A DNA stretch of 64,000 nt, taken from a virus. Below, piece after piece: positions 5,924 through 46,512 of this stretch (the first letter of the stretch is position 1; every line of letters begins with the position of its first letter). The notes below the pieces were generated by a model. That model did not search any database. It was not told the DNA's origin and was given only the letters and a program-made list of their open reading frames with translations. Position numbers and translations under genes: made by a program. The stretch covers positions 1 to 64,000 of IMG/VR virus record IMGVR_UViG_3300036818_000127, one strand, 5' to 3'.

Positions 5924-7078
5924 CTATGACAGGTCTTTTACGGCCTGTGAAATCTTAGTTTTCAAGGCTGCAAGTTCCTGTGCGAGGGCACCTTGTTGAA
6001 GTGCAGCAATTTGCTTCTGTAGATCTGCAATTTGGGCAATAAGGATTGCATGTTGCTTCTGGTACCATTGCAATTCCTTCCCGAGCCAACCAGGGAAGAT
6101 ACCTAATTTAGGGTTATACTCTAGCCGATCTAGATTGAAGAGCTGGGCTTCTCCAGCTCCAAGCCCTGGGTTGCTCTGCTCCAGGATAGGGAAGTGCTTC
6201 ACGGTCTCAAGTGGGACATTTGCAGGGTCCCAATTAGATCCTCGTACAAGGTCTCGAAATCCTAGAGTGACGGGTGTCCCATCGGGTGCTTTGAGGGTGG
6301 TTCCATCATCACTCCACCCCTGCGGAGTAGTAGGCATAGTTGGTTGTCCTCCTGATACTGTCTTTGGAAATGCACTAAAGATTTGATCTAAGAGACTAGG
6401 ATTAGCTACAGCCGTTCCATAGTGCCAAATACTAATTGCAGTATGTCCTTGGTTATGAGCTAGTTTTGCAATATTTACAGGATCATTTGGCCCGACATCC
6501 TGTGTCATGTTTAGCGTTGGCTGTAGGCATGATGCCCCTATGAAGTCCTTCCAGAATGATGCAAGGAAGTTATTGTATTGCTGAGGAAGGTATACTGCCA
6601 CGCATGGGTTGAGTTCCGCCAGGACAGACTGCCATTTCTGCCAGCTCGGATCTCCCCATGTGCTCACAAGAAAGAGCCCGGGGTAGCCTTTCAGTTGCGC
6701 AGTAACGCGACGTGCCCAACCTGCCTGTCCATTCCACTCCACTTCCATATCAGCCACGACAGCCCCATCCTCTTGCATGAAGCTCTTGAGAATATTGATC
6801 TCACCATCAAGGAAGTTATAGGTATCCCCATACATCCATGTATAGGCAATGCACCCAACCCCTTCGCCGCGAATAACATCTCGCCGCTGCTTATATCCTG
6901 CCATTCCTCCATACCACCAGTTACCTCCATCTGCAGACTTGAGAATCAATGTATCTACCCCATGCGCTTTTGCAAACTGTGCCGCCTGGGTAAACTGGTT
7001 CATTTTCCACCCTGCGGTCTCAGTCCCCAAAAACAATAAGTGCTGACCTGTAACATTTGCTACATCTTGACATGCCAT
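5924..7078 (-). CDS. Endolysin (glycoside hydrolase TIM-barrel-like domain plus C-terminal domain and coiled coil)
   Basis: LILKSADG, VADMEVEW (DxE) and ISIWHY motifs; located between tail genes and holins. Confidence 0.75.
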   Translation of the reverse strand: MACQDVANVTGQHLLFLGTETAGWKMNQFTQAAQFAKAHGVDTLILKSADGGNWWYGGMAGYKQRRDVIRGEGVGCIAYTWMYGDTYNFLDGEINILKSFMQEDGAVVADMEVEWNGQAGWARRVTAQLKGYPGLFLVSTWGDPSWQKWQSVLAELNPCVAVYLPQQYNNFLASFWKDFIGASCLQPTLNMTQDVGPNDPVNIAKLAHNQGHTAISIWHYGTAVANPSLLDQIFSAFPKTVSGGQPTMPTTPQGWSDDGTTLKAPDGTPVTLGFRDLVRGSNWDPANVPLETVKHFPILEQSNPGLGAGEAQLFNLDRLEYNPKLGIFPGWLGKELQWYQKQHAILIAQIADLQKQIAALQQGALAQELAALKTKISQAVKDLS

Positions 7079-7093
7079 AGTTTACCCCTTTTG

Positions 7094-7453
7094 CTATGTT
7101 GGCTCTATTGATAATACCCCGAAGTCAAATGTTTGCGTTTTCCCTCCTGATGTAGCCTTGATCTGTTGGCGGAATGTACCTAGGCTTGCTACATCATTTA
7201 CTGATTGCTGGTAGGTGATCTGGGCAGGATCGCCGCCAGATGCTCCAAGCAGATTGCTAAAGACACCATCGCCTGGACGCTCAATGCCATTGGATATATT
7301 GCGTTGGAAGTAAGTAAAGTTCGACTCTGTTAATCCTGATGTATCGAAGTCTCCTGAGTCTGGTATGAGTTGGAAAGTCCAAGGTTCCAGGGTATCTCCT
7401 TGCGGCCAGGGTGATTGTGCCATGCTAGTCATTCCTTTCTGTTGCGATTCCAT
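7094..7453 (-). CDS. BppU-like small tail/baseplate protein (start probably at MAQSPW)
   Basis: QGDTLEP start and ITYQQSVNDV..GTF motif. Confidence 0.5.
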   Translation of the reverse strand: MESQQKGMTSMAQSPWPQGDTLEPWTFQLIPDSGDFDTSGLTESNFTYFQRNISNGIERPGDGVFSNLLGASGGDPAQITYQQSVNDVASLGTFRQQIKATSGGKTQTFDFGVLSIEPT

Positions 7454-26671: not shown

Positions 26672-28708
26672 TTACATGTACCTTTCGATGAAGGATTGAT
26701 AATCGCTTCGTCTTCGTCGGCGATCCTTCTGTGAGTGAAAGGGGGATGTATCGGCCACTATAGCCGTTCCAGGTGTCTTCTTCTCTTGCATTGCTGCTTC
26801 GGATGGTAGACCATCGTACCTTTCCTGAGTGCGCGAAGTCTCCTTTGCTGACATGGCACGCAGTTGCAGGTATCTTTCGTCAACCGTAAAGACCGTAAGA
26901 GCTTTCTGATATGACCGATCATAAGATCTTCTCCTAAGCTTATCCTCTTGTGCTTGGCGTGCTGCTACATCTCTATCATGTCGGCTTTCTATGAAGTCCA
27001 CCGCGAATGCACTGACCATTGCAGCAATACTAAGGCCAGAGAGGTCAGTCTCATCAGGGATAGAGAGCGTCGTCATAGAGCACTGACAGTATTTATGGCA
27101 GTTATCTGGCTCTGCACAGCCATTCGGGAAATCATCATCTATCCCGACCATTGCGCTGTTATTCTCTAGGCAGAACTCACAGGCTCCAGACATGCAGTGC
27201 CAAACCTTGTAGTTGGCATCCTGTGTTGCTTTGCGTTGCATGCCCTTTCCGCTAGCAGGCTTCTCATTTCCGCTAGGGACAGGAGGTTGTTTCCCGTTAG
27301 GTGCGTGCGGGTTTTTCTGATTAGCACTTGCTGTTGTTCCCCCAGCTGGTGGCAACTCCTGAACAGTCGTGTTACCTTGCGGTAGCAGGCTAGGATCAGT
27401 TGGCGGTGGGATCTCAGGAGGAGCTGTAGTCTTATCTGCAAGCACATCAAGCTCATCAGCAGACACAACAGTTACCGTGCCCATAATCTTGAAGATATTG
27501 CCCTTGCCATTTGGAAGCTTCTCTAGTCCTTGGCCTTCTCTTGCCTCATCAAGGGTACACTGCATGCTATTCCAGAGGTTCGTAAACCGCTCGCTCTTAG
27601 CTGTGAGCTGGGATTGATACATTTCGGCAAGGGCTTCGATATCCTCTTTGTCATAGGTGAAGAATGCCTTTTTGTTCCTCAAGTCCTCATACATCGGGAC
27701 CAACCAGCTATTGACATGATCGCGCACTCGATCTATTTTCGGGAGGACATTCTCCGTGTAGAGTGCTGCCCTCGCCTCAGAGACATTTGCAAAAGTCTTA
27801 CCAGCAGAGTCACCGATCAACTCCGGTGCTACATCAAGGATTGCAGCAATTTCGCGGGTGTTCAATTCCCTACTCTGCATCCAGTCAAGCTCATAGGGGG
27901 AAAGGGACATATTTTGCCATGTCATGTCACCTTCCAAGACTAACGGCGTCCCAGCATTCCTCTTGCCTGAATACTTGCGCCGCAGCTCATCACGGATCTG
28001 GTTACGCGCCTCTACAGTTAAGAAACCTTTAGCAAAGAAGCCACTAGAAGGTTTCCCCATGTTTTGCATAAGAGCAGTATTCCAGGCATTGCCTTCATTC
28101 TGTTGGTCAATTAACTGGCTTGCTGTTTCTATAGGGGATAGCCCATAGTAGTCATCATCATAAGCGGGAAACTTGATATGCATAATATCTTCTGGCTCAT
28201 ACAGCTTCACGCCAGGAGTGCCATACCCATAGACATAGTTCTCAATACCTACTGAAGAGGGCACGATCTTGACGCGATCAGGACGAAGGTGCCAGAGTGC
28301 AAGAGGTGGCCCATTCTTGCTCGGGCGGAAGGCCCAGATATAGCTGTTGCCTGCAAGGTGCCAGAAACCAAAGAGCTTTTCAACAAATGCGCCGCTACTC
28401 TCATTTAGGTTGGGCTTGCGCCACAGATCCAGCAGGGGATGCTCTTCAATCTCTGTCTTCATCGTGCGATCTTCATAGAGCTTCCACGAGATACCTGCTG
28501 CTGCGCTAGAGATTTTATTGATAGAGGAATAGACCGCGGACGTCCGGCGGTAACCTTCCTTCACAAAGTTAGCATAGTTTTTCGGTGTCCAGACAGGCTG
28601 TCCAGGTGTGATAATCTGGAGGGAAGTCCCATAGTTCGGATCGACTGCTCTGGGGTCCGTGATTGCTTTTAAGGCTAGGGATAGCCTATTCCATATTCCC
28701 ATTACCAA
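26672..28708 (-). CDS. HK97-family portal protein with C-terminal gpF/gp7-like extension
   Basis: LAGNSY, LRPDRV and YGLSPI motifs; tail W..CEFC..HKYCQC. Confidence 0.92.
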   Translation of the reverse strand: MVMGIWNRLSLALKAITDPRAVDPNYGTSLQIITPGQPVWTPKNYANFVKEGYRRTSAVYSSINKISSAAAGISWKLYEDRTMKTEIEEHPLLDLWRKPNLNESSGAFVEKLFGFWHLAGNSYIWAFRPSKNGPPLALWHLRPDRVKIVPSSVGIENYVYGYGTPGVKLYEPEDIMHIKFPAYDDDYYGLSPIETASQLIDQQNEGNAWNTALMQNMGKPSSGFFAKGFLTVEARNQIRDELRRKYSGKRNAGTPLVLEGDMTWQNMSLSPYELDWMQSRELNTREIAAILDVAPELIGDSAGKTFANVSEARAALYTENVLPKIDRVRDHVNSWLVPMYEDLRNKKAFFTYDKEDIEALAEMYQSQLTAKSERFTNLWNSMQCTLDEAREGQGLEKLPNGKGNIFKIMGTVTVVSADELDVLADKTTAPPEIPPPTDPSLLPQGNTTVQELPPAGGTTASANQKNPHAPNGKQPPVPSGNEKPASGKGMQRKATQDANYKVWHCMSGACEFCLENNSAMVGIDDDFPNGCAEPDNCHKYCQCSMTTLSIPDETDLSGLSIAAMVSAFAVDFIESRHDRDVAARQAQEDKLRRRSYDRSYQKALTVFTVDERYLQLRAMSAKETSRTQERYDGLPSEAAMQEKKTPGTAIVADTSPFHSQKDRRRRRSDYQSFIERYM

Positions 28709-30242
28709 CTCACCTCCTCTATATATCCCTCATCCTCTGTAATCTCTTGATTCCAGGAACCACTCTCTAGTTGGAGCATGGCATATTCGCGGTTCTCATC
28801 CCTCGCTATTTCCATTGACTGTGGGGTGATCTCTATAGTTTCGGCTGACCATGCCATCGGGCCATCAGGAACAAGGTATAGTTCATTCATGGCACCAGAG
28901 CTAGCATCTACAGGATCATCATGGACAGTAGGGTTAGGGAATGCTACGAGGAAGTTAATCAGTCCCTTATTCCAATGAGCGCGGAGCATGCCAATGTTAC
29001 CGAATTTGGCCTGCGCAGACATCGTATTAGCACGGATTTCCTTGCTCCCTGTACTAGGCTTCCCATCCACGTCATAGCCCGCGAGCACTTTGGTCACGAG
29101 GCTAAAGATATAGCTCTTGCCGCTAGCACCAGGCTCTTGCTCAATCCTAATAACAGTATCGCGGCCATCCTTGATAGCCGTTTCCTGCAAGAGGTCTTCA
29201 ACTCCGCCAGGATCGCGCCGTTCCCAGATAGCATTGAGGATAAGGTAGCGTGGGTAGCAGCCTTCTTTTCTTCTAGCTAGAAGGACTCCAGCAGTATAGT
29301 CTGGTCCTGTCTTCTTGCTATTAGGCTTGACTTCTTCTGTGGCCGCGAGATCCCAGAACCTGCACTTGCGTTCAATGTCATCAGGGATATCATCAAGGAT
29401 ATGCTTTTCAAACCATTCCCGCCGGAACTTCTTACCAGATGGCCGAGCTGTCCAATCCCCATGCTTCAGTCGGCGCTTCTCAACTTCAGGCAGAGCATCC
29501 AGGCCAGCTTCATAGCCAGGATCTACATCCATCAGGATCTTATTGTCATAGAGGTTGGCGAAAACGAAGGTGATAGAAATGGCGCTTTTTACATCAGGAT
29601 CGCACCAGCGAACATTCTCATCCTCCACCACAAAGTATCTGACTTCTCCGCTCTCTGCTCGGGCACGGAATCGCTCAGGAGTATTAGAGTTACGCTCAGA
29701 GTCCTCCCAATCCTCATCAACCCAAGGAGCCAGTACGATCTTTACCCAGCTCTCAGGATCAGGATTAGTGAAGGCCCTCATGTAAGGGCGCACGCCGCAT
29801 AAGGACCGGTTCCTAGAGAAGAGATAGAAGAATTGAGTGAAGCTCATTTCAGTAACTTCATCAACCTCGATGAGCGGCATCTCACTACCCTTCCAAGATT
29901 GCACGTCGCTCTCGTACTGCATATAGGCAAACTTGACAGTTGCTCCGGAGGGGAATGTCCATTGCAGTTCAGACTTGTTCGCCCGTCCGCCTAGCTGGGG
30001 ATAGATATCATAGGAGCGTTTCCACAGACCACCAGGAGCCATGAGCTGCCGATAATATTTGCGGAAAATGACAGCCTGGAATTCAGGGTTATCAATATGG
30101 TAGGTAGGCTCTAAGAGGCAAGCATAAGATTTGCTCAGCCGCCGCCAGCAGCCCCGCCATAAAATCCGAGTCTCGTATTGGCACTTAGGAATATTTCTTG
30201 AGGGCCGGATTGCGGTCGTATGGCTTCAATTGCTAGCGACAT
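28702..30242 (-). CDS. terL: Terminase large subunit, interrupted by a 5-nt TGAGC insertion (30133-30137) in Walker A
   Basis: GGAAGGG-[TGAGC]-KSYACLLE; VDEVTE Walker B; RFWDLAAT, EQEPGASG and HDDPVDA nuclease motifs; AAGGAGG RBS at 30242. Confidence 0.9.
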
Positions 30243-35260: not shown

Positions 35261-36083
35261 TACCACCTCCAAGCAGAGACACAATAGGCAACTCTTCTGT
35301 CTGAGGGATATTCTTGCGGATTTCACCTACATCATCACGTATCTCTTTTGCAATGCTTTCTACGACTTCGCCCTTTGCGCTAATAATCTGCTCTTTTTCC
35401 CCTGCTGACAAATCTCTGATATCATCTTTCCCTAATCCCTGGAGTTTAAAGGCGCGATTAACGCCAGCGGCCTGCTTACCTAATGCCTCTCTATTCGTTA
35501 TAAGATTGACCATGAGTATCCTAATCGTATCATCCACAAATGTCTTTTTGCCGCTCCTGGCTTGCTCGTGCTTCTCTATTAAAATAGCATTCGTAACCGT
35601 TATATTGGCATTGTCATATACCCAGGCTCTCTGCTTTTCGCTCTTGATTAGCTTGAACTTCTCCCAACTCTCTGTGAGTATCCACTCAGCAAAAAGATCC
35701 CTTATGCGTTCTCGGACTCCTGTCAAGCGGCGCAACTGGATAGCAGCAAGCACGCTAGGATTTGTGTTAATGAACTCTTTCCATCTTCCATGTATCTCGC
35801 TTCCTTTAATATTATACGTCTTCTCTACCGTTGATGTGATGTTGCCCTTTCTGTCCCTTTTAATAATTGTCTCCATAACCTTCTGCTCTAGGGGAATATT
35901 ATTATAGAGCTGCATCTCATAGAAGGCCATCTTACAAATCCTGTCAAAGCCTTCTATTTCCTCTTTCTTCTCGCTTGCTTCAAAATCGTTGTGGGTTTCA
36001 GTAGACACTAGTGATGATATGGATAACAGATCAAGTGCTTGCATGCTGTTCATCTCCTGTGCGCTAATCAACGTTGCAATCAT
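35253..36083 (-). CDS. Hypothetical protein
   Basis: 276-aa ORF overlapping the next gene. Confidence 0.65.
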   Translation of the reverse strand: MIATLISAQEMNSMQALDLLSISSLVSTETHNDFEASEKKEEIEGFDRICKMAFYEMQLYNNIPLEQKVMETIIKRDRKGNITSTVEKTYNIKGSEIHGRWKEFINTNPSVLAAIQLRRLTGVRERIRDLFAEWILTESWEKFKLIKSEKQRAWVYDNANITVTNAILIEKHEQARSGKKTFVDDTIRILMVNLITNREALGKQAAGVNRAFKLQGLGKDDIRDLSAGEKEQIISAKGEVVESIAKEIRDDVGEIRKNIPQTEELPIVSLLGGGNE

Positions 36084-36213
36084 TCTCTGAATCGCGTCCT
36101 CCCGACATCAGGTACATCCATCCACATATATTTAGTATAGCACATGAATGCCATTGGCTCTTACCAGCATCATTGATCTCCCATTCTTTTTGTACTATTA
36201 CAAAGAGGTATTG

Positions 36214-36741
36214 TTACCGTTCCTCACCCTTCTTAGGCAGGTATATAGCAATTCCGCTTGTCTGGATTGGTCCTCCGTCTTTGCCAGCTAATTCAATCTT
36301 CTGCACGATGCTAGCACCTCTTGCTTCTCTTTCAGCCTCAAGCGCCAATTTCAAGAGACTTACGCTTGCAAGTGCTCCGAACTTCTCAGCCTTGATAAGT
36401 TCCTCAATCTGCTTTATTGCACGTGCTTGCTGAGTTGTACCAATCAATGCTTGACGCTCATTCATTAGGTCAACTTCCTTCTCAAGCTTCTTCATCTTTT
36501 CTTCAGCTACTTTTGCAATCTGCTCTTGATCAAATTTCTTGGCACGTGCAACCCACTGATACTTGCTACTCCATTCCTCAAGTGTTCGTAAACGCACCGT
36601 CGCTTTGCCGTCGCTTTGCCGTCGCTTTGCTTTAATGACCTCTGCAAGCTTTGTAAGCGAGCGGTCTGGTCCTAGGTAGCAATATTCTAGGAAGGCTGCA
36701 GCGGCAGGCGGTGTCTCAATTTCTTCTTTTCTGTGGGCCAT
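36214..36741 (-). CDS. terS: Terminase small subunit
   Basis: N-terminal HTH (RSLTKLA..LEEWSSKYQW) and C-terminal KIELAGKDGGPI. Confidence 0.75.
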   Translation of the reverse strand: MAHRKEEIETPPAAAAFLEYCYLGPDRSLTKLAEVIKAKRRQSDGKATVRLRTLEEWSSKYQWVARAKKFDQEQIAKVAEEKMKKLEKEVDLMNERQALIGTTQQARAIKQIEELIKAEKFGALASVSLLKLALEAEREARGASIVQKIELAGKDGGPIQTSGIAIYLPKKGEER

Positions 36742-36745
36742 AGTC

Positions 36746-36952
36746 TTACTCTTCTTGCTCCAGTTGTTCGAGCAACTCTTCTAGCACGTCTACCTTGGAT
36801 TGCTTCCTTGCGGCATCTAATGCATCTTCACTCATTGTTTGAGAGTCCCCTGTCAGGACAGCGAGGCCGATCTTCTTCAGCAGCTCTGATGCCTCTGAAC
36901 TGTACTGCGCCTGGAGGATATAGATCATATCAGTAAACTGTTCTTTTCTCAT
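36746..36952 (-). CDS. Hypothetical protein
   Basis: 68-aa ORF within the operon. Confidence 0.55.
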   Translation of the reverse strand: MRKEQFTDMIYILQAQYSSEASELLKKIGLAVLTGDSQTMSEDALDAARKQSKVDVLEELLEQLEQEE

Positions 36953-37662
36953 ATTCTTTTGCTACCTCCAGAACCAGTGCATAAAAGCATACACGATAAA
37001 GTAGATAACCGTAGCTCCAACTGCAAGCCAGAATATAACCTGGAAGCATATGAGGATAGCAGTAAGGATGCCAACTCTCTTGATGGTCTTCTCTGTCCGC
37101 GCAAAGCTTCGATTGAACTGTTGTTCAAACTCTCTACCAAATGGATACATGTACTCTTTCCCTTCCTTTTAATCGGGATAGTTCTCAGTAAGTCTCTTAA
37201 CCACCGAGGTATAATGCTCTGTGTCAAGATCCCAGCCTTGTGCTTTACAGAAGAGATCAACAAGCTTGTCCATCCCATCTTCATCAAGGTAAGATAGGAA
37301 CGGGCCAGAGTCCTTTTCTGGAGCCGTTCCAACTTGTGGATAGAGAGGTCCAAGTCTGTATCATCCACAGTAAGCTTCAATCTGAACTTATCATTTTCGA
37401 GCTTTTCTGGATCGGGCTTTTGTGCATGGCAGTAAGGGCATACATTGATGATATGAGCATTGACAGTTACATCTACAGCAGGTGCATGCATCCAGAGGAT
37501 TGCTTGGGGCATACCATGGACATCAAGGTCAACAAGCCTTACATGAAAGATCTTATCAATGAATTGGCCTGTATCTGCATCGGTAATCTTGGTCTGGTAT
37601 CCTGGCCCACCGTCATTCTGGATGTGAACACGGCGCGGTGGCTGCGGCTTCTCTTCAGACAT
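36949..37662 (-). CDS. Hypothetical protein; the 3' half overlaps a small membrane ORF (36962..37150) and may be frameshifted
   Basis: GGAGG RBS and plausible N-terminal half with CPYC. Confidence 0.5.
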   Translation of the reverse strand: MSEEKPQPPRRVHIQNDGGPGYQTKITDADTGQFIDKIFHVRLVDLDVHGMPQAILWMHAPAVDVTVNAHIINVCPYCHAQKPDPEKLENDKFRLKLTVDDTDLDLSIHKLERLQKRTLARSYLTLMKMGWTSLLISSVKHKAGILTQSIIPRWLRDLLRTIPIKRKGKSTCIHLVESLNNSSIEALRGQRRPSRELASLLLSSYASRLYSGLQLELRLSTLSCMLLCTGSGGSKRI

Positions 37663-37677
37663 GATTAATCCCTCCTT

Positions 37678-38403
37678 TTAATTCTCACGGATAGCAATCC
37701 AGCCAGCGAAATTAAGATAGCGCCAGAAACAGTCAATCTGCTGGAAACCAGCCATATGCAATAGTTCCTCATTCCACCTTGCTGTCACAGGCACAAGCAC
37801 ACCCTCTAATGAAAGCCTCTTTCGCTCAATAGCCTCTTGGGAGTAGCCATTTGTTGCCTTGAGAGCATAGTAATTCTTGACGAGCAGGGTATCAATCTCG
37901 GCGCTTGATCCCAGAAGCTTCTCAACAAGGATAAACACGCCGCCAGGGACAGTGTGCTTGAAGACCTCGCGGATGATCCGCTGGCGATACTCTATAGGAA
38001 CAAATTGAAGAGTCAGAATAGAAAGCGTGACACTTGCCTTCTCTGGCGGGTAGTCCTTCCGAAGATCAAGGGAACGGATAGAGGCATGTGGTTCTATCCA
38101 CCCATTTGAAAACCGATCACTTGCACACTGCAACATCGGCTGACTTACCTCAATCCCGACACATGTCGTCTGGTGCCAGAACTTCTCAACAAATGGAGCT
38201 AGGGCATCGCCGCGAGCACACCCAAGGTCAACAATAGCCGTATGGGGTTTCACGAAGGGAGAAGCAATATCGAACACAGATTGCCGCATCACCTCATATT
38301 GAGGGATAGAGCGAACAAGCATGTCCTCAAAGACATCTGTGACACTCTGGTCAAAATCCCATTTGGCATCTGTAGGCATGTGCCCTATACTATCTTTTGT
38401 CAT
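37678..38403 (-). CDS. cmoA: Carboxy-S-adenosylmethionine synthase-like protein
   Basis: WDFDQSVTDVFEDMLVRSIPQY, DLGCARG, LTLQFVP, EK, KRLSLEGVL and NFAG, all matching the CmoA family pattern. Confidence 0.85.
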   Translation of the reverse strand: MTKDSIGHMPTDAKWDFDQSVTDVFEDMLVRSIPQYEVMRQSVFDIASPFVKPHTAIVDLGCARGDALAPFVEKFWHQTTCVGIEVSQPMLQCASDRFSNGWIEPHASIRSLDLRKDYPPEKASVTLSILTLQFVPIEYRQRIIREVFKHTVPGGVFILVEKLLGSSAEIDTLLVKNYYALKATNGYSQEAIERKRLSLEGVLVPVTARWNEELLHMAGFQQIDCFWRYLNFAGWIAIREN

Positions 38404-38412
38404 CGCTCTTTC

Positions 38413-38578
38413 CTACTTCAATTACTCTCTACTATTTGTAGAAAACTCTACAACTTTTTGGTTATGTACCCCAGGAAAGGGCCATACAACTAAGAGAGGA
38501 TAGATTACCCTACCTGACCATAAAACTTCCAGAATGGCACTACAGTGGCACCTGGTCCAATTGCTGGTTATACCCGTT
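38413..38578 (-). repeat. Dispersed ~166-nt element, copy C
   Basis: Homologous to copies A and B; overlaps the AdoMetDC 3' end and ends at the cmoA RBS. Confidence 0.85.
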
Positions 38579-38938
38579 TCTTGGTGATCTATTTGCTCTC
38601 ATAATGAGATGAGCCTCAATATCATCTGTTTGGAAGATCTCTTTTGCAAAGGCAATTGCATCCTCCTGGCTAAATTCCTTGCAAGAGCAAATATCAATAT
38701 CAACCTCGCCGTGCTCCGGCCACGTATGCAGACTAACATGACTCTCTGCAATGATGACGAATCCTGATAGACCGGAATCTGCATAGCTCGGTGTTTGGAT
38801 ATTGTAGAGGGATGCTGGGCTTACCTTCTCCATCCCGATGCGAGAGGGATACTCATCAAGGATGCGGCGCATAAGTAATTCGTTACTCAGGATAGCTCGA
38901 TCAATATCGTACATTTCTAACATTAAGTGGATGAGCAT
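38540..38938 (-). CDS. speD: Pyruvoyl-dependent S-adenosylmethionine decarboxylase family protein
   Basis: GLSGFVIIAESHVSLHTWPE..DICSC (ESH self-cleavage site). Confidence 0.88.
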   Translation of the reverse strand: MLIHLMLEMYDIDRAILSNELLMRRILDEYPSRIGMEKVSPASLYNIQTPSYADSGLSGFVIIAESHVSLHTWPEHGEVDIDICSCKEFSQEDAIAFAKEIFQTDDIEAHLIMRANRSPRNGYNQQLDQVPL

Positions 38939-38953
38939 GCTAGTTCTTTCCTC

Positions 38954-39466
38954 CTATAAAGATCCTGTCTTGAGTGCGTCGATTTTCCTCTGAAGATACC
39001 AGGAGAAAAACCCTTCATTTCTTTTTTGGAATTCAGGATCTTTCCAGGCATTGCCATCAATAGTGCCCCGACATTCAGGACTCCCACATTGACACTGCAT
39101 GCTCCAGACCCCATCATATCTCTCTGTTGTTTCATAATCGAAACATAGCTCTTCGCCTGCCAGGATATCACGGCGGGCAATGAATACCGTTTGGCCTTGC
39201 ACGCCGATATTCGGAGAGCAGCTATGATTCACCCCATAGGATTTCAGGTGGGGCACCCCGAGATAGACGTTATCACAAACATGATAGAAATTATCTGAGA
39301 TGGAGCGAGGAAAAGCATCAGTTTCCTCTTCAGTGATAATGTCCCCACCATATACAAAAGCGATTTCACCTTCTGGAATGAACTCTGTAGCAAAGAGGCC
39401 GATACCCTGGACAGGGCTGTTCTTGAATTCGCTCTTTGGCGAAAAGTAGGAATAATATTTATGCAT
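38954..39466 (-). CDS. SET-domain methyltransferase with post-SET
   Basis: GIGLFA, NHSCSPN, ARRDILAGEELCFDY and CQCGSPECRG. Confidence 0.9.
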   Translation of the reverse strand: MHKYYSYFSPKSEFKNSPVQGIGLFATEFIPEGEIAFVYGGDIITEEETDAFPRSISDNFYHVCDNVYLGVPHLKSYGVNHSCSPNIGVQGQTVFIARRDILAGEELCFDYETTERYDGVWSMQCQCGSPECRGTIDGNAWKDPEFQKRNEGFFSWYLQRKIDALKTGSL

Positions 39467-40319
39467 TAGGAACTCCTTGGTGGATCTCACTAAAAAGACG
39501 GCGGTAAATGACAATAATTGCCTTCGCATGGCTTACATTGTACTTTGACTGAAGAAGCGTGTCATGCCACTCACGAAGTCCGCTGTTGATTTGCAATGGA
39601 CTATTTGTTCGGTACCATTTCCCACATTTCCAGAACTCAGGGAAGGCGCGGATAGCTAATCCCTTCTGGACAGGGATGTGGATATCATAGGATTTGCAAG
39701 AAAGAAGAAAGTCTATGAGGTCAGGATTGCGAAAGGAATCATAGATCTGTACCCCACATGAAAGTGCTGTTTTTATACAACTTATATCTGAACCACCTTC
39801 CCAAGCAAGCCATTCACGCCGCTTCTGCGTAAACCATTCCTCCCCATGTTCCTTGATACCTACAGAAAAAAAGCGAGATACGCCCCATAAGTCATCAGCA
39901 TTCATTGCGAATGATGCATCACGGTACCCATCATTAAAAGCTGCTTCTGCAAGATAGAGGAATGGATGCGCACATTGTATATGTATTTTTCTGAGTCTAC
40001 AGACAATTGGCAGCACACGGCGAATATCGGCAATGAGTGTTTCCTCATTCTGAGGGATTGAGACAATCGTATGGGGGATATCAAAGTACTTGCAGACAGA
40101 TCGAGAGACCTTTGCATCACTACTCTCACGGTTCCCTACCTGGAAGGTATAGCAGTGTGGTGGCTTATATCCGAGCGAGAGAATACCAGCAAGGTTTGTC
40201 ATACTATCAGTTCCGCCGCTTAGCATCAGCGGCATAGACACATAGGGCTTGATTGCCTCTTGGAACAGAGATCGGAATGTCTGCGCCTGCTGCTCTTGCT
40301 GTCTGCTCACTGCTCGCAT
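39459..40319 (-). CDS. Asparagine-synthetase-like ATP-dependent amide ligase (synthetase domain only)
   Basis: LMLSGGTDS PP-loop and NADDLWG; no glutaminase domain. Confidence 0.75.
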   Translation of the reverse strand: MRAVSRQQEQQAQTFRSLFQEAIKPYVSMPLMLSGGTDSMTNLAGILSLGYKPPHCYTFQVGNRESSDAKVSRSVCKYFDIPHTIVSIPQNEETLIADIRRVLPIVCRLRKIHIQCAHPFLYLAEAAFNDGYRDASFAMNADDLWGVSRFFSVGIKEHGEEWFTQKRREWLAWEGGSDISCIKTALSCGVQIYDSFRNPDLIDFLLSCKSYDIHIPVQKGLAIRAFPEFWKCGKWYRTNSPLQINSGLREWHDTLLQSKYNVSHAKAIIVIYRRLFSEIHQGVPNA

Positions 40320-41749
40320 TGATCTAGTATCCTCTCCTGTATCGTCTTGGCTACCTTTTCCATCATCACAGGAGGCACTGCACGGCCAAGTCGCTCCCAT
40401 TGCTGTGAATAGGTCCCTGTCAGAATAAAATCATCTGGAAATGCACAGATCCTCTTCAGTTCAGCAATAGAAAATTTCCGCTTCTCAGTTGGATGGGTAA
40501 CGCCAGCAGCAGCAGCAGGTGACCATGCAGTGCCAGCAGTCTGGGTGACAGTAGGGCATGGGCCATCAAGGGGTGCTCGCTGTAGAGAGAAGTATTTTTG
40601 ACTCTGTTCTCCAGGCTTTAATTTATCCCATTCCCTGCCGATTGCAAACTTGCTAATATCAGATTCAGGCTCAACAATCTGTTCCTCTATCCAGTGTGTT
40701 CCTACTGATCCAGATAAAACTGTTGGGCTCGGCTGGTCAGTAATATCGCTGCCATTACCAAAGGCCCCGCGATCATCACGGATAGCACGGATAGGGACAT
40801 GCTGTTCCTCGATATACCATTGCTGCATTGTCGTCAAGGTCGGAGAGGGAGTATCTGTAATGTCCCCCTTGCTATATTGAGGTTGGCCTTTTGCATCATG
40901 GATCGCACGTACAGGAATAGCTTCAATAAGGCTAGAAGGGGAAAGCCCATTTCCAAATGCTGGACTTGCGCCAATAGTGCCGCTAGGTGAGGTGGATGTA
41001 TCTCTCCATCCCTCTGTCCCGAATACTGGTCCAGCGCCTTGTCTGATGATCCAGGGCAATGCCTCACGTACTGTATAGGTATAAGGAAGTGGAGCCGGAT
41101 GGGCTGGCCTTATCTTGTACTGCTCAACAAGATCATTTCTCACACCGACAAAGATAAGGCGTTGGCGCATCTGGGGGACACCGAGCCACTGCGCATCAAG
41201 GATCTTGGCCTCAACAGTATAGCCACATGATTTTAGTTCCTTCAGTATCTCTAGGAAGTAGCCTTTAGCTGTCCCCTTCACAAGCCCGCTCACATTCTCA
41301 GCAACAAATACCTTTGGCTGTAATCCCTTGAGAAGTCGTACATATTCAAAGAAGAGATCATCAACCCGCTGGCGCGTATCACTGTAATCCTTGACTTTGC
41401 CCCAGCTTGCCTCACGCTTTCCAGCAGTTGAGAATGATGCACAGGGAGGACTTCCTTCAAAGACATCAAGCTCACCCTGATTTAGATGTATAGCTTTTAA
41501 AATCTCATCTGGTTTTATTTTACGGATATCACGCGCATCAAGAATAGAATGAGGATGATTAGCTTTATAGGTATCTCGTGCTGCTGGTATAAATTCATTT
41601 GCCCAAAGAATACGGTACCCTGCAAGACGGAATCCAAGGCAACTTCCGCCACACCCTGAGAATGTACTTACAACATTACGGCCATTCCATGGTATTTGTT
41701 CTATTTCCCTCATTGAAGGGACTCTGTAAGGAGGCTTGTCTTTTATCAT
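40307..41749 (-). CDS. DNA cytosine-C5 transferase, probably a carboxymethyltransferase
   Basis: FSGCGG, GSPPC, ENV and QMRQR motifs; motif X reads GRAV instead of GNAV; ATGA overlap with the upstream gene. Confidence 0.9.
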   Translation of the reverse strand: MIKDKPPYRVPSMREIEQIPWNGRNVVSTFSGCGGSCLGFRLAGYRILWANEFIPAARDTYKANHPHSILDARDIRKIKPDEILKAIHLNQGELDVFEGSPPCASFSTAGKREASWGKVKDYSDTRQRVDDLFFEYVRLLKGLQPKVFVAENVSGLVKGTAKGYFLEILKELKSCGYTVEAKILDAQWLGVPQMRQRLIFVGVRNDLVEQYKIRPAHPAPLPYTYTVREALPWIIRQGAGPVFGTEGWRDTSTSPSGTIGASPAFGNGLSPSSLIEAIPVRAIHDAKGQPQYSKGDITDTPSPTLTTMQQWYIEEQHVPIRAIRDDRGAFGNGSDITDQPSPTVLSGSVGTHWIEEQIVEPESDISKFAIGREWDKLKPGEQSQKYFSLQRAPLDGPCPTVTQTAGTAWSPAAAAGVTHPTEKRKFSIAELKRICAFPDDFILTGTYSQQWERLGRAVPPVMMEKVAKTIQERILDQCEQ

Positions 41750-42342
41750 TTCGGCTTTCCAGACCATTGATAGCTGCATTTTGGGCAACAGTATTCTGTA
41801 TCGATACCTTCATCATAGCTCTTGAAATCATCTGGTGATTCCCTGCCATCATCCTCCTCATCTAGATAGGCATCCCCGAGCTTTTCTAACATCTGGCGGA
41901 GTGCTTCCCCGTCCGTCCCGAGACTTGCAAGATCAAACCCCGCCTGCTCCTGTTCCTCTAAGAGCTGGGCCAGGGACAATTCATCTGGTTCAGCTTTATT
42001 CCCTAAGTGATTGTCGCTAACCATATAGCCTTTGGCGTCTAATATGCTCCACTCTGGAGGTGCGATAACAACAGCCCAGCTATTGAGGTGAGCATACTTT
42101 GCAGGGTTTTCTGCATACAGTTCTTTTGCTGCCTCAGTGATTCCATGACCAGCAAGGATAATGTACTGTTCCTCGCCGACAGCCTGCTGGACGACAATGG
42201 GGCGCACCTGCTTGTACCTCATAAGTGAGGCTTTTAGGTCTGCAATTTGAGCAGGTGGATGTTGATTGTAGTTGGCCGGATGACCTTCAAGGCTATCAAG
42301 GGTTACTCTTTTGAATTGGACCTCATTGCTTGTTGCAGGCAT
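41746..42342 (-). CDS. ParB/Srx-like N-terminal domain protein with C-terminal Zn ribbon
   Basis: HPANYNQH..LKASL..PIVV..ILAGHG, SDN and CPKCSYQW. Confidence 0.8.
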   Translation of the reverse strand: MPATSNEVQFKRVTLDSLEGHPANYNQHPPAQIADLKASLMRYKQVRPIVVQQAVGEEQYIILAGHGITEAAKELYAENPAKYAHLNSWAVVIAPPEWSILDAKGYMVSDNHLGNKAEPDELSLAQLLEEQEQAGFDLASLGTDGEALRQMLEKLGDAYLDEEDDGRESPDDFKSYDEGIDTEYCCPKCSYQWSGKPK

Positions 42343-42360
42343 GAATGTCTCCATTAAAAC

Positions 42361-42435
42361 AAAAAGGACACTTTTCAACCTCATAGTATGAGGGAAAAGC
42401 GCCTGATGCATATTGCATTGTCTAAGCGTTATGTA
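42361..42435 (-). terminator. Intrinsic terminator with the same upstream 16-nt box as 19743-19758
   Basis: TACATAACGCTTAGAC-N12-ATCAGGCG hairpin plus T tract. Confidence 0.65.
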
Positions 42436-42446
42436 TTCTGTTTTTG

Positions 42447-42710
42447 TTAGTCTTGAGGCTGAGAAACTGCTACTCCGTTATACAAACCATACCTTTTACT
42501 TGGTCTTTTGTGTTTGTATGCTCTATTCGTTATGGAGTACGTCTTCGTACCCAGCCTCATCCCTTGGCCGTCATTCTGGAACTTAAATTCAACACGGCCA
42601 TGACCGCCCTCTCGCTCAATGAGGCGTTTACTGCTCTGGAGGTAGGCATACATCTCCAGGTCCTCATCGTTTGGTCCAGTCGGCAAGATTGAACTATTCT
42701 CTGAATCCAT
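42447..42710 (-). CDS. Hypothetical protein
   Basis: 87-aa ORF with AGGA RBS. Confidence 0.55.
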   Translation of the reverse strand: MDSENSSILPTGPNDEDLEMYAYLQSSKRLIEREGGHGRVEFKFQNDGQGMRLGTKTYSITNRAYKHKRPSKRYGLYNGVAVSQPQD

Positions 42711-42929
42711 TGTATCCTATTCTTCTATGCTATAGGGACAATTATTCTAATAACAATGTAACATACGTTCGATATATAAATCAAGTGGACAAGCGGACAT
42801 GACACAAAAGAAGGAAGGGGTTTACCTCTAGATACTGAAATGTGTTGAAGAAATCAGAACTACGAGGTAGTTAGGAAGTACTCGGCCACGTTTATAGTAG
42901 AATCCCCTCCTGTCATCATCATAACATAT

Positions 42930-44159
42930 CTATAGTCTTTTGTTCATCAGCAAATGGACCCTACTCTTTTCTGCTACAATTTTGGGTATATGTTTTTCTA
43001 GAGAGAGTACAGTGCCGTGCTTCTGGAAAATATATTCTGAAACATCCATGTGCTCAAATACATAGGGCTTAAATACTGTATCCGATAAGTCCTCAACAAA
43101 ATAAGCCTTACTAGGCAAGTTCTCAATAAGAAGAGTAAATAATGCAGCATAGACACCAACAATCACCTGCATGCATGTTCCATTTGTGCCATTGGCAGCA
43201 AAGTTGAGTGCTGAATTAAAGTAGTATACTTTTTTATCATCATAGTCCAAGATGACACCAATATTATCTGAACCATTGATAGGGATGAGTATATTATCAC
43301 CATGAACAAGATCTGCATGACTGACATGATGTTTCCTGCTATAGATGTCATCCATATAATCCATTGTCTTCATGTGGATGGCATAGATGAATTGAGAGGG
43401 GATATCATACTTTTGTGCAATAGATACATTTTCATCATGCAGGATAATAAGTCCTTGGGGATAGGCATCCAGTTTCATAATAGGAGAGAGAAGAGGCTCC
43501 ATATCCATTCTATGTTTCAGTCCATTAGGGAAAAGTTCTCTAAGCTGATCTCTTCCGAGCATTATCCCGCTAGGGCTGCTGACTGCCTCGACTAGGAACT
43601 CATGAATAGACCATGTGATCGTAGGCATCCATTTTTCCCGAGCAGTTGACGTATCATATTCAAAATGGATAACCTCTCGCGGGACCCCATATTTTTCAAT
43701 GCCATACTGCACCCACATATTCACAACCCCTGGATTCATTCCAGTACAGAGAATATGAGGGGCACCTGTAAGTACCTCTTTCCTATCATAGATATCACGA
43801 ATAAGCTCTAAGCAGGATTGGTCATCATTATTCATGCATGCATTGACATAAGAGACATGAGCCTTATTTGTTGCTTCTAGGATAGGAAGTGAATCAGCAT
43901 CAGTCAGGTCCAGAACGATATCAATATGATACCTTTCGAGAATAGCAACGTAGTCAGCATAATCTGAGGTAAGTTCTTTTTGTATAAATGTGTAATCTAG
44001 CTTCTTGTGGTCAAGGCGTGGATTAACAAGAACACCATTAGACATATCAAGAAGAACGACTGTACCAAACATCTCTCTATAGAAAGGCAGATAGAGAAGG
44101 ACTGCATTAGAGATACTTCCAGAAGCACCAAGCAGCAGTAGGTTTTTTATTCTACTCAA
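42930..44159 (-). CDS. Homospermidine synthase / saccharopine dehydrogenase-like protein
   Basis: Rossmann GASGSIS, GMNPGVVN and TWSIHEFLVE motifs. Confidence 0.75.
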   Translation of the reverse strand: MSRIKNLLLLGASGSISNAVLLYLPFYREMFGTVVLLDMSNGVLVNPRLDHKKLDYTFIQKELTSDYADYVAILERYHIDIVLDLTDADSLPILEATNKAHVSYVNACMNNDDQSCLELIRDIYDRKEVLTGAPHILCTGMNPGVVNMWVQYGIEKYGVPREVIHFEYDTSTAREKWMPTITWSIHEFLVEAVSSPSGIMLGRDQLRELFPNGLKHRMDMEPLLSPIMKLDAYPQGLIILHDENVSIAQKYDIPSQFIYAIHMKTMDYMDDIYSRKHHVSHADLVHGDNILIPINGSDNIGVILDYDDKKVYYFNSALNFAANGTNGTCMQVIVGVYAALFTLLIENLPSKAYFVEDLSDTVFKPYVFEHMDVSEYIFQKHGTVLSLEKHIPKIVAEKSRVHLLMNKRL

Positions 44160-44374
44160 GAGCGTACCTTCTCCTTAATGATGCATGCTTCGATATCTTC
44201 TCTATTATAGAGTATTCGGTTACCGACAGGCTCAGTACGAACAGGATTTCTCTTCCTCTGTGATAGTCTCCTTATGTATTTTGGAGAGATCGGACGCTTA
44301 TATTTCAAGCTCAACAGTTCAGAGGCATCATGAGCAGAAATGTAGTCAGCAAGAGCGATGATTTTTCTTGGCAT
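44156..44374 (-). CDS. Small HTH protein (possible excisionase or regulator)
   Basis: YISAHDASELL..LYNREDI; divergent from the integrase. Confidence 0.65.
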   Translation of the reverse strand: MPRKIIALADYISAHDASELLSLKYKRPISPKYIRRLSQRKRNPVRTEPVGNRILYNREDIEACIIKEKVRS

Positions 44375-44431
44375 GCAATGTATCTCCTGGCATATATCTA
44401 GCTCTTTCTAGTATATCACAAAAAAGAGGGG

Positions 44432-44479
44432 CCTAGGACACATAAAAGGCTTGACACAAGGAGTCCTAGGATGTAAAAT
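44432..44479 (+). promoter_or_regulatory. Integrase promoter with overlapping inverted repeat
   Basis: TTGACA(44451)-17-TAAAAT; CCTAGGAC...GTCCTAGG. Confidence 0.6.
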
Positions 44480-44526
44480 GAGAGGGTCTAGGTACCGATT
44501 ATTTAAGATAATCAGTATCCAGACAA

Positions 44527-45549
44527 ATGGAGGTACTCATGGAATATGAAGTTATCCCTGTTCATTCCACTCTTGACCAAGTTGGGCAAAGTGAGAATGT
44601 CATCTCAGCAAACAATGCTTTTAAGGACTATCATGACAGGATAGACCCAAATACTTTTGCACGTCAAAGTTATGACATGGCACTCTTTTGCGCATTTATT
44701 GCAAGCAAGAAAGTGCTAGTAGACAAAGATGAGCTATTATCCAGTCCCAGAGCATGGTTAGATATCACTCACGGAATGATTGACAGCTTTGCAAAATGGA
44801 TGATAGAAGAAGGCTTTGCTATAGGCTCAATAAATATACGTTTATCTACTGTAAAGACGTACTTCAAGCTTGCTTCTAGAGCAGGCTATATTCAACCTGA
44901 TGAAGCAGTAAAAGCCCATTTTGTAAAAGGGTACAGCTACAAGCAAGGGCTAAACGTTGATGAACGAAGGGAGATAAAGCGCAAGGATAAGAGCAAGAAA
45001 GCTGAGCCCATACCATTAACAAAAGAGCAAACGGATCTACTTAAAAAGCATCCAAATACACCACAAGGGCGACGTGATGCCTTGCTTATGTGCTTGCTCT
45101 TAGATCATGGTTTACGATGTGGGGAGGTTGCAGACCTTACACGTGCCAATATTCAACTTACCTCTGGAATACTTACCTTTCATAGGGAGAAAACCAAAGA
45201 AGAGGATAAGCATAAACTCACGAATGATACATTGGTTGCCCTCATGAGGTACTTTGAAGTCTACCATCCAACTGGCAAGCTCATAGCTGGCAGCCATAGG
45301 AGCGGCCAACTTATGGGGGAAATGAGCAGAAGAGCCATAACTAAGCGTGTACAAGTCTTAGGGGAGCAGATACTTGGGATAAAGAATCTCTCAGCGCATG
45401 ATTGCAGACACGCTTGGGTGGAAGCTGCCATACGAGGGGGAACCAATATCAAGACGCTCCAACAAGCGGGTGGCTGGTCAAGTCCCGCTATGCCACTGAG
45501 ATACGCCGCAAAGGCTGAAATTTCAAATGAAGGAGTAAAACTAGGATGA
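44527..45549 (+). CDS. int: Tyrosine recombinase / integrase
   Basis: GLRCGE, K, HDCRH and GW..M..RY catalytic residues. Confidence 0.92.
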   Translation: MEVLMEYEVIPVHSTLDQVGQSENVISANNAFKDYHDRIDPNTFARQSYDMALFCAFIASKKVLVDKDELLSSPRAWLDITHGMIDSFAKWMIEEGFAIGSINIRLSTVKTYFKLASRAGYIQPDEAVKAHFVKGYSYKQGLNVDERREIKRKDKSKKAEPIPLTKEQTDLLKKHPNTPQGRRDALLMCLLLDHGLRCGEVADLTRANIQLTSGILTFHREKTKEEDKHKLTNDTLVALMRYFEVYHPTGKLIAGSHRSGQLMGEMSRRAITKRVQVLGEQILGIKNLSAHDCRHAWVEAAIRGGTNIKTLQQAGGWSSPAMPLRYAAKAEISNEGVKLG

Positions 45550-45887
45550 ACCAACCAAATGATGACCGCTTCAAGAAGATAGAGGAACGCATTGACAAAC
45601 TGGAACAAGAGAATACAAAGAGCATAGAAGCTGAGCGGCTCCTGCTCCGGCTATCAAGGATGCATGACGTGAACGTAAAGGAACTGCTCGCCCTTTGCGG
45701 AAGGATCGATCTTGATACAGGAGATGCACGCGAGCGATTTGACGTGATTGAGAGGACTCTTTTCGATCATGGGAATAAGCTTGACAGAATAGAGGAACAC
45801 CAGTTCAAGCAAGATGACAGGCTTGGCAGGATAGAGGAATTGCTTGTACAGTTGGTTACTAGACTACCACAGCCAGAGGGGGAATAG
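45546..45887 (+). CDS. Coiled-coil hypothetical protein
   Basis: Heptad repeats; ATGA overlap with int. Confidence 0.7.
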   Translation: MNQPNDDRFKKIEERIDKLEQENTKSIEAERLLLRLSRMHDVNVKELLALCGRIDLDTGDARERFDVIERTLFDHGNKLDRIEEHQFKQDDRLGRIEELLVQLVTRLPQPEGE

Positions 45888-45892
45888 GGAGA

Positions 45893-45921
45893 TTGACAGA
45901 CTATCTAGTCTAAAATATACT
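45893..45921 (+). promoter_or_regulatory. sigma70-type promoter with palindromic spacer
   Basis: TTGACA-17-TATACT containing AGACTATCTAGTCT. Confidence 0.6.
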
Positions 45922-46005
45922 TTTATTATCAAACAAAAGTACAGGTCCACCTAGCTCTTGTTTTGCCGCCAGAGAGAAGGCGGCAAATTTCTTGAAAGGA
46001 CAGCA

Positions 46006-46512
46006 ATGATTGATGAATTCCTAGAAAATGCTAAAAATGGAGAGCATGAGGCGCTGAGTGAGATCTATCGGCATTTCTTTCCTAAGATATTTCATTTTAT
46101 CCTAAAAAGGGTGGGTTTTCATGAAACAGCAGAAGATCTCACCTCAGAGGTTTTTATTCAAATGCTCAAACATATCCGTCTATTTAAATCAGAAAATGCT
46201 ATGGCGTTTCACAAGTGGCTTTATCAGATTGCGAGGGCAGTGATAGCAGAGCATTACAGAAAAAGAAAAGATATACTCTCACTTGAACAGAATGATGAGA
46301 GCATCTTCGATGAAATCGCCCAGCATGAGGCATGGCTGGATCTTGTCCAAGGAATCAACAAGCTCCAAGACTCGCACCGTCAACTCATTATCGACCGCTT
46401 TATTTTAGGGTATAATCAGGCAACCATCGCAAGGCTTACAGGAAAGAAAGAGGGTACAATTAGAGTAACTGAATATCGTGCAACACAAAATCTACGAAAA
46501 TTGATACGTTGA
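46006..46512 (+). CDS. ECF-type RNA polymerase sigma factor
   Basis: Region 2 (AEDLTSEVF, WLYQIAR) and region 4 HTH. Confidence 0.88.
   Translation: MIDEFLENAKNGEHEALSEIYRHFFPKIFHFILKRVGFHETAEDLTSEVFIQMLKHIRLFKSENAMAFHKWLYQIARAVIAEHYRKRKDILSLEQNDESIFDEIAQHEAWLDLVQGINKLQDSHRQLIIDRFILGYNQATIARLTGKKEGTIRVTEYRATQNLRKLIR

Follow-up and report, generated by a model that had tools for sequence, protein, structure and literature searches.

A putative DNA-hypermodification operon was analyzed in a stretch of viral DNA that comprises the first 64 kb (positions 1 to 64,000; hereafter the window) of IMG/VR record IMGVR_UViG_3300036818_000127, a complete virus genome of 109,417 bp with direct terminal repeats. 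Genes were assigned by scanning the window proteins against Pfam, NCBIfam and PHROG. Ten open reading frames (ORFs) stand in a row on the minus strand with narrow gaps or overlaps, forming an operon at positions 37678-44374 plus a following 237-aa ORF. In the order of transcription, the row opens with a 72-aa ORF (44156-44374) without a family match, whose stop overlaps the start of the next gene and which may be the first gene of the operon. It is followed by the gene for a predicted 409-aa NAD(P) dehydrogenase of the homospermidine synthase (HSS)/carboxyspermidine dehydrogenase (CASDH) superfamily, here termed HSS-like (42930-44159, counted from a TTG start; weak Sacchrp_dh match), an 87-aa ORF without a family match (42447-42710) and the gene for a ParB-like protein (41746-42411; phrog_620, 6.8e-22). 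Next come the genes for a predicted CmoX-type DNA cytosine C5-carboxymethyltransferase (ORF limits 40307-41788; PF00145, 7.8e-59), whose true start probably lies a few codons inside this ORF, for a CmoY-like ATP-dependent amide ligase of 286 aa with a PP-loop and no GATase domain (39459-40319; PF00733) and for a 170-aa SET-domain methyltransferase (38954-39466; PF00856, 9e-14). The row is completed by a 132-aa class 1b pyruvoyl S-adenosylmethionine decarboxylase (AdoMetDC; 38540-38938; PF02675, 1e-24), the carboxy-S-adenosylmethionine synthase CmoA (37678-38403; TIGR00740, 1.7e-41; phrog_4752, 4e-70) and the 237-aa ORF (36949-37662), which has no family match. The SET start overlaps the ligase stop, the ligase gene overlaps the cmoX stop, and cmoA lies approximately 1.9 kb downstream of cmoX in the same string of genes.

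All seven genes named by a first-pass annotation of this DNA were thus detected on one strand, tightly packed or overlapping, at 37678-44159. Its description of the cluster as lying before terS could not be confirmed, as the next ORF (36949-37662) is without a family match and the terminase gene terL is located at 28702-30042, approximately 7 kb beyond that ORF. A scan of positions 36000-45000 for promoters and terminators yielded no more sites than were obtained with shuffled sequences, and the limits of the operon are therefore drawn from gene spacing alone. Megablast with the cluster as query returned zero matches among 50,697 phage records.

The core of this operon is readily compared with the system of Synechococcus phage S-B43 (Yang et al., Nat Commun, Dec 2025, PMC12783734). 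In S-B43, a phage CmoA yields carboxy-S-adenosylmethionine (carboxy-SAM, Cx-SAM), the C5-methyltransferase (C5-MTase) homolog CmoX forms 5-carboxymethylcytosine (5cxmC), and CmoY, a ligase that resembles asparagine synthetase, amidates 5cxmC with glycine to give 5-glycylcarboxymethylcytosine; ParBc genes are frequent companions of such Cmo systems. CmoX candidates were recognized in that study by an SPPC motif together with Arg350, a residue that binds the carboxylate of Cx-SAM and corresponds to Asn304 in M.HhaI. The window C5-MTase carries both features. Its first PDB match is SpCmoX (8YF3, 3.4e-68), followed by the HaeIII methylase (8.5e-30), and its GSPPCASFS segment, aligned to GSPPCSAFS of 8YF3, contains the catalytic SPPC. 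The first-pass annotation had drawn attention to a GRAV sequence in motif X, and this observation was borne out: QWERLGRAVPP in the window protein aligns residue for residue with QTERVGRMVPP of SpCmoX and, counting from chain residue 306 of 8YF3, the Arg of GRAV falls on position 350. Wild-type SpCmoX is active alone in vitro and takes Cx-SAM only, and its R350N mutant shows no activity with either SAM or Cx-SAM (PMC12783734). An R-to-N revertant of the window enzyme, which had been suggested as a test of cofactor preference, would consequently be uninformative. One difference concerns the target-recognition insert, which spans about 200 aa in the window CmoX and about 90 aa in SpCmoX; with a recognition region about twice as long, the specificity of the window enzyme is probably not GC.

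The window CmoA is covered by TIGR00740 over positions 13-238 of 239, with a score of 142.5 bits that lies under the curated cut-off of 193.3. Among solved structures it is matched best by E. coli CmoA (4GEK, 3.4e-30), with other methyltransferases far behind. The protein is 28% identical to the biochemically proven SpCmoA and 47-62% identical to the CmoA proteins of related loci. The score under the cut-off, and the fact that this phage is known from its genes, would fit a locus at which no carboxymethylation takes place, with an ordinary 5-methylcytosine methylase and a CmoA homolog serving tRNA modification or SAM depletion. This possibility is considered very slight, as the Arg in motif X, the SPPC motif and the far better match to SpCmoX than to methylases all speak against it, as does the exclusive use of Cx-SAM by wild-type SpCmoX (PMC12783734). 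Furthermore, cmoA, cmoX and the ligase gene are strictly co-located over dozens of phage loci.

The window ligase contains the PP-loop sequence SGGTDS (SGGxDS is invariant across 24 homologs) and lacks a glutaminase domain. It is 27% identical to SpCmoY (E 7e-17) and belongs to another clade. Acidic residues D142 and D178, located by a conserved G-x-G-A-D motif, are common to the window ligase, to ligases of loci with no cassette (described below) and to the ligase of locus L010, and are found neither in SpCmoY nor in the clade of ligases linked to DegT aminotransferases. D143 is present in the window ligase and in most of the no-cassette sequences. Where the window clade has Asp at positions 143 and 178, SpCmoY has Gly and Phe, respectively. 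These acidic residues, which set the ligases of the window clade apart, are regarded as a lead only.

In nearly every related locus, a gene for a ParB homolog precedes that for CmoX. The window protein also matches phrog_498 (MTase-fused ParB, 3.9e-21) and has no Pfam match. It reads GHGI at the place where ParB/Srx proteins usually show an Arg-containing GxxR box, and its C-terminal CCPKC...W segment resembles a small zinc ribbon. ParB has been shown to activate phage DNA-modifying thymine dioxygenases (PMC13229309). In those systems, as in the window, the gene of a ParB homolog adjoins that of a post-replicative base-modifying enzyme, but the partner is an Fe/2-oxoglutarate dioxygenase. The window ParB-like protein is a probable activator or targeting partner of CmoX.

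Judged by homology, the core of the operon is the already published CmoA/CmoX/CmoY-type ligase/ParB system and not a new one. The assignment of CmoA as the source of Cx-SAM, of the Arg-bearing C5-MTase as carboxymethyltransferase and of the third protein as amide ligase, all made by the first-pass annotation, agrees with the proven S-B43 enzymes (PMC12783734), and it is highly probable that carboxymethylation and amidation operate in this phage. The two systems share CmoA, a C5-MTase with SPPC and the Arg350 equivalent, a glutaminase-less asparagine synthetase-like ligase and a ParBc-type neighbor, as well as a post-replicative logic in which a carboxylate handle is installed and then amidated. 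In contrast to S-B43, the window operon adds AdoMetDC, the HSS-like dehydrogenase and SET, none of which appears in PMC12783734 or its supplements. For other ligase clusters, the same study allows for amines 'that remain to be identified'.

The first of these additional proteins reads as a true AdoMetDC, being neither an arginine nor an ornithine decarboxylase (ODC). Residue criteria for the Ser, His and Cys of SpeD, and for telling AdoMetDC from its decarboxylase derivatives, are available (PMC10407285): a Pro is conserved in true AdoMetDC and not in SpeD-derived arginine decarboxylases, and Gln, Thr, Phe and Tyr form the ODC signature. The logo positions of that study were placed on the window residues by inference. 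In comparison with the T. maritima enzyme (1TLU), the window protein has kept the catalytic Cys, the processing site ESH and, within HTWPE, both His and Pro. The self-processing Ser, His and Cys (S63, H68 and C83 in T. maritima) are found where AESHVSLHTWPE...CSC of the window aligns with SESHLTIHTWPE...FTC of 1TLU. HTWPE is present, and none of the ODC-type residues that occur in the stand-alone SpeD of locus L010 was seen. The protein scores 87.4 bits with Pfam PF02675 (cut-off 25) and 69.2 bits with TIGR03330, which is under the curated cut-off of 75.65. A fully phage-encoded homospermidine route is not supported, because the search of the phage's own genome for a spermidine synthase (PF01564) found none, leaving AdoMetDC without a phage-encoded aminopropyltransferase partner. 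Decarboxylated SAM would thus need a host enzyme. An action of AdoMetDC on Cx-SAM or on a DNA-tethered amino acid was also considered and was set aside, having neither precedent nor support.

The HSS-like protein includes its Rossmann motif LLLLGASGS only if translation begins at the TTG at 44159; the public gene call (380 aa) starts too late and loses this glycine-rich loop. Pfam Sacchrp_dh matches are weak and remain below the gathering score. A family profile matched HSS 6y87 at 1e-9 and the CASDH-type structures 4ina, 8h4z and 8deb at 2.5e-6 to 1.6e-5. The AlphaFold2 model (pLDDT 92) gave Foldseek TM-scores of 0.68-0.73 to both HSS and CASDH, with sequence identities of 17-19% to HSS versus 12-15% to CASDH. 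The substrate-binding and catalytic residues of BvHSS are Asn162, Glu210, Trp229, Glu237, His296, Glu298 and Asp361 (PMC4725965). The GMNPG, EYD, TWS(x5)E, HxE and GSD segments of the window protein align with P. aeruginosa HSS 6y87, in an alignment of low significance from which the residue numbering is transferred provisionally. More than 300 homologs at 50-58% identity were collected from DPANN archaea, Patescibacteria, Verrucomicrobiota and others, several of them named homospermidine synthase by JGI. In contrast to canonical bacterial HSS, the window protein belongs to a divergent subfamily that is rich in DPANN, candidate phyla radiation (CPR) and Verrucomicrobiota members. Based on fold and residues, it is safe to call it a predicted polyamine-forming dehydrogenase. 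When IMG/VR was scanned, a profile of the HSS-like family found no viral relative, and the ligase, SET and HSS-like sequences, each used as a single query, found nothing.

In the window SET protein, the motifs VNHSCSPN, GEELCFDYE (ELxFDY) and post-SET CQCGSPEC (CxCx4C) are intact. The best PDB match is the MLL1 SET domain (1.5e-10), and the small-molecule SET enzyme BurB is matched as well. BurB is a SET-domain methionine S-methyltransferase (PMC12542666) and offers the example of a small stand-alone bacterial SET protein with a free small-molecule substrate; unlike BurB, which methylates the sulfur of methionine, the window SET is nearer in sequence to lysine N-methyltransferases. Cellular genomes provided further context. 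A SET gene was located within approximately 3 kb and on the same strand in 5 of 80 cellular HSS-like loci. It directly adjoins the HSS-like gene in one Patescibacteria, one Woesearchaeota and one Nanoarchaeia genome and is separated from it by 1-2 kb in another Woesearchaeota and in one deltaproteobacterial genome (L104:4890-6645, L105:4394-7035, L101:3750-6681, L092:4857-8675 and L120:4902-7745). Roughly 0.3-0.5 such loci would be expected by chance. In four of the five genomes this SET gene is the only one, and among 50 other genomes with an HSS-like gene a SET gene is found elsewhere in 27. The cellular HSS-like gene is commonly followed by an EamA or MFS transporter gene or by a second CASDH-like paralog, and a SpeD homolog is near it in two loci. 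Cmo genes are absent from these cellular loci. They are likewise absent from L020, a 59-kb viral contig on which a tandem pair of SET-like ORFs is directly followed by a CASDH-like gene (L020:2786-4882); the protein encoded by the latter was tried as a member of the HSS-like family and rejected, since hhalign gave no significant similarity and it represents a different member of the superfamily.

The pairing of SET with an HSS-like gene and an exporter in cells that lack CmoX points to a small-molecule substrate that would be methylated before ligation. This gene context suggests that the substrate of SET is not DNA but a small molecule of polyamine type, produced by the neighboring enzyme, and the cellular SET/HSS-like/exporter module is a candidate for the production of a methylated polyamine-type metabolite. 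Methylation of an amine already on DNA, as proposed in the first-pass annotation, received no specific support: the cellular pairs point to a small molecule, and 41 other viral loci with SET relatives have no CmoX, CmoA or ligase gene within 10 kb. As a result of these unlinked viral loci, SET is not considered a regular part of Cmo systems. Use of decarboxylated SAM by SET was set aside for lack of precedent and support. A joint acquisition of SET and the HSS-like gene was also dropped, as the HSS-linked SET proteins stand apart from the window SET in a poorly resolved phylogeny.

A related route would build up the amine on the DNA itself. Here, putrescine would be ligated first, the HSS-like protein would add an aminobutyl group and SET would methylate the DNA-tethered terminal amine. 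SET enzymes methylate lysine side chains, and a 5cxmC-putrescine amide would end in a four-carbon primary amine that is chemically like such a side chain. The window SET is a canonical lysine-methyltransferase-type domain with post-SET motifs, and its gene is translationally coupled to that of the ligase. On the other hand, the SET/HSS-like/EamA or MFS neighborhoods of cells without CmoX, CmoA and ligase fit a free small molecule, the Pfam and PDB matches of SET and the HSS-like protein revealed no DNA-binding domain, and we know of no SET or HSS-family enzyme that acts on DNA. Assembly on DNA is therefore judged improbable, and methylation of the free polyamine before ligation is the preferred order of events, should SET act on the amine.

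Evidence on the amine itself was sought in related loci (designated by L numbers). A profile built from the 24 collected ligase homologs recovered 14 viral and 19 metagenome loci. All informative loci of this set retain ParB, CmoX, ligase and CmoA, and this order recurs in approximately 30 loci. What varies is the slot between the ligase gene and cmoA, which holds SET and AdoMetDC in the window. No gene occupies the slot in some loci (L005, L060). In nine others, all distinct (L006/L063, L007/L067, L008-9/L070-72, L064, L065, L069, L073, L075 and L077) it is occupied by a DegT aminotransferase gene, joined in four of the nine by a gene for myo-inositol-1-phosphate synthase; examples of such cassettes are L006:10806-13245, L008:10740-12808, L069:3703-5903 and L077:10819-13130. 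The pairing of a DegT aminotransferase with an inositol-phosphate synthase is typical for the synthesis of aminocyclitols or amino sugars. For these relatives, an aminocyclitol or amino-sugar amide of 5-carboxymethylcytosine is predicted, a product that is not in PMC12783734.

Locus L010 (6855-13047; same contig as L176) encodes ParB, CmoX, an OCD/SbnB-like dehydrogenase (weak match), the ligase, an AdoMetDC-spermidine synthase fusion (speE model 1.4e-64), a second SpeD homolog and CmoA. The stand-alone SpeD reads Q..ETS..GHF..IY and fits the ODC signature of PMC10407285, so that, judging from its genes, L010 holds a full predicted ornithine-to-spermidine route within a Cmo operon. In a maximum-likelihood tree of the ligases, every DegT-linked ligase is contained in one 21-row clade (SH-aLRT 100), the window ligase falls into a separate five-member clade (99) and the L010 ligase forms a long separate branch. 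Ligase lineage follows the adjoining amine-synthesis cassette, as would be expected if the neighboring gene makes the amine that the ligase uses.

A further scan with a CmoA profile added 78 viral loci, bringing the related loci to approximately 100 in all. Many of the added loci consist of ParB-CmoX-CmoA without a ligase; thirteen carry a glutaminase-fused ligase, as in Streptomyces phage TurkishDelight, and two a ligase of the type found in Pseudomonas phage PaBG. Among the 78, polyamine genes were detected solely in the contig already known as L010, and AdoMetDC, SET and HSS-like genes nowhere else. The window arrangement is rare and possibly unique, which makes for novelty and at the same time limits the weight of guilt by association.

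Individual loci of the collection showed features of their own. The cultured jumbo phage PaBG (L002:7189-11766) encodes ParB, CmoX, CmoA, a 150-aa unknown protein, a CmoY-like ligase and a 203-aa unknown protein. Pfam matches neither the 150-aa nor the 203-aa protein on the two sides of its ligase, and both may be accessory enzymes; PaBG would be a tractable model. Locus L077 contains a tandem CmoX-like pair ahead of the ligase (6926-9231), perhaps with two sequence specificities.

The following pathway is proposed for the window operon. CmoA would convert SAM and prephenate into carboxy-SAM. CmoX, probably assisted by the ParB-like protein, would bind the carboxylate of this cofactor through the Arg in motif X and transfer the carboxymethyl group to C5 of cytosines in the phage DNA after replication. 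The glutaminase-less PP-loop ligase would then adenylate the carboxylate of 5cxmC and form an amide with an amine. This amine would be a polyamine or a derivative thereof, such as putrescine, spermidine or a homospermidine-type product of the HSS-like dehydrogenase, and AdoMetDC would raise the pool of aminopropyl or aminobutyl donors via the host spermidine synthase. SET may N-methylate the free polyamine end and would most likely do so ahead of ligation. Cytosine would thereby come to carry a positively charged adduct held by an amide bond, and the DNA would be protected from nucleases of the host. While the CmoA, CmoX and ligase steps are drawn from homology to proven enzymes, the identity of the amine is read from gene context alone. 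From this context, the chances that the ligated amine is a polyamine are rated as about even, and the participation of SET in the pathway as possible, with the balance leaning against it. The complete proposal comprises a DNA cytosine with an amide-linked polyamine that may be N-methylated to a fixed cation, a polyamine-specific ligase, a precursor shaped by the HSS-like protein, AdoMetDC and SET, and a ligase-to-cmoA slot that acts as a swappable 'amine cassette'; taken as a whole, it is tentative and somewhat unlikely to be correct in every part. A literature search found no link of 5cxmC, CmoX or Cx-SAM with polyamines or SET proteins, and the polyamine part of the cluster is accordingly an unpublished, inferred part.

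The proposal has to be weighed against a simpler explanation, namely a system of the known type in which 5cxmC is amidated with a common non-polyamine metabolite of the host (glycine, another amino acid or ammonia) and in which the polyamine genes and SET are bystanders. In such a phage, AdoMetDC and the HSS-like protein would raise polyamine pools for replication, translation and packaging, and SET would methylate a host or phage protein. Several observations count against a polyamine-bearing cytosine and for bystander genes. Among phages, speD and HSS genes are common; their products have been demonstrated to function in general polyamine metabolism, and they are often carried as metabolic genes with no relation to DNA modification (PMC9992855). 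Even in S-B43, a speD gene is present at a distance of more than 35 kb from the Cmo genes. Polyamine genes are located beside CmoX/CmoA in just two distinct genomes among the approximately 100 related loci. The nearest ligase relatives with known context (L059, L060) carry no cassette and must draw on a host metabolite. Further points are the 41 viral SET loci unlinked to Cmo genes, the placement of the window SET outside the long-branched HSS-linked SET proteins in the poorly resolved tree, the equally close fold similarity of the HSS-like protein to CASDH and the missing phage spermidine synthase. The chemistry of this phage, finally, is read from its genes.

Other observations are difficult to reconcile with bystander genes. 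The polyamine genes are interleaved and partly overlapping with the core genes and do not merely lie alongside them, two other independent cassette types in the same slot are devoted to amine synthesis and ligase phylogeny follows the cassette. Moreover, the window ligase is just 27% identical to the glycine ligase and differs from it beside the acyl-adenylate motif. The phage polyamine genes described as auxiliary metabolic genes (Li et al., PNAS 2023, PMC9992855; JBC 2023, PMC10407285) include class 1b AdoMetDC and HSS-family genes like those of the window, and their set of AdoMetDC, spermidine synthase and SpeD-derived ODC-like enzyme recurs in L010. In those studies, however, the genes are viewed as a general polyamine supply and DNA modification is unmentioned, whereas the window and L010 genes are situated inside a DNA-modification operon. 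Taken together, amidation with a common host metabolite remains a serious contender, although not in itself a probable one. With regard to the preferred reading, the proposition that the ligase attaches a phage-made polyamine gained from the variable amine cassette and from the spermidine genes in the same slot of L010, and it was weakened by the lack of a third case among the approximately 100 loci.

Precedent for a polyamine-bearing base comes from thymine. Phages attach host diamines to thymine and rewire their supply, as exemplified by alpha-putrescinylthymine in phage PhiW-14 and alpha-1,3-diaminopropanylthymine in Acinetobacter phage SH-Ab 15599 (PMC13458397), and the known polyamine-bearing DNA bases are thymine derivatives, with neither a cytosine nor an amide among them. 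The window proposal shares with these bases a host-type di- or polyamine on the C5 substituent of a pyrimidine, a cationic base and a polyamine supply rewired by the phage. The diamine thymines arise from 5-hydroxymethyluracil via a kinase or pyrophosphate intermediate and a diamine DNA transferase, which gives an amine linkage. The window modification would instead involve cytosine, a carboxymethyl handle, an amide formed by an ATP-dependent ligase and an amine supply that is partly phage-encoded.

Genes outside the operon were recorded as well. On the opposite strand, divergent from the modification operon, positions 44527-46512 encode a tyrosine integrase and a sigma-70-family factor, and the phage may be temperate and make use of its own sigma factor. 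Small ORFs at 36214-36741 of the window and at L006:13223-13741 gave weak, sub-threshold matches to DNA glycosylases (methyladenine glycosylase 0.0047, UDG superfamily 1.8e-4); these matches may be due to chance.

If the polyamine genes prove to be ordinary metabolic neighbors, the locus is another member of a published system. If the proposed pathway is correct, a cytosine with a polyamine attached would be described for the first time in DNA of any kind, as a counterpart of putrescinylthymine reached by entirely different chemistry. A CmoY-type ligase that uses an amine other than glycine would also have its substrate assigned for the first time, a question left by PMC12783734. The participation of SET would give a first indication of polyamine N-methyltransferases among prokaryotic SET proteins and would explain the SET/HSS-like/exporter pairs in DPANN, CPR and other genomes. 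Should the 'amine cassette' be swappable, an aminocyclitol or amino sugar would be placed on cytosine by those relatives that encode DegT together with inositol-phosphate synthase. The rule that the gene between the ligase and cmoA names the amine would offer ligases for loading varied amines onto DNA in biotechnology, and it would make the DNA chemistry of many uncultured phages predictable.

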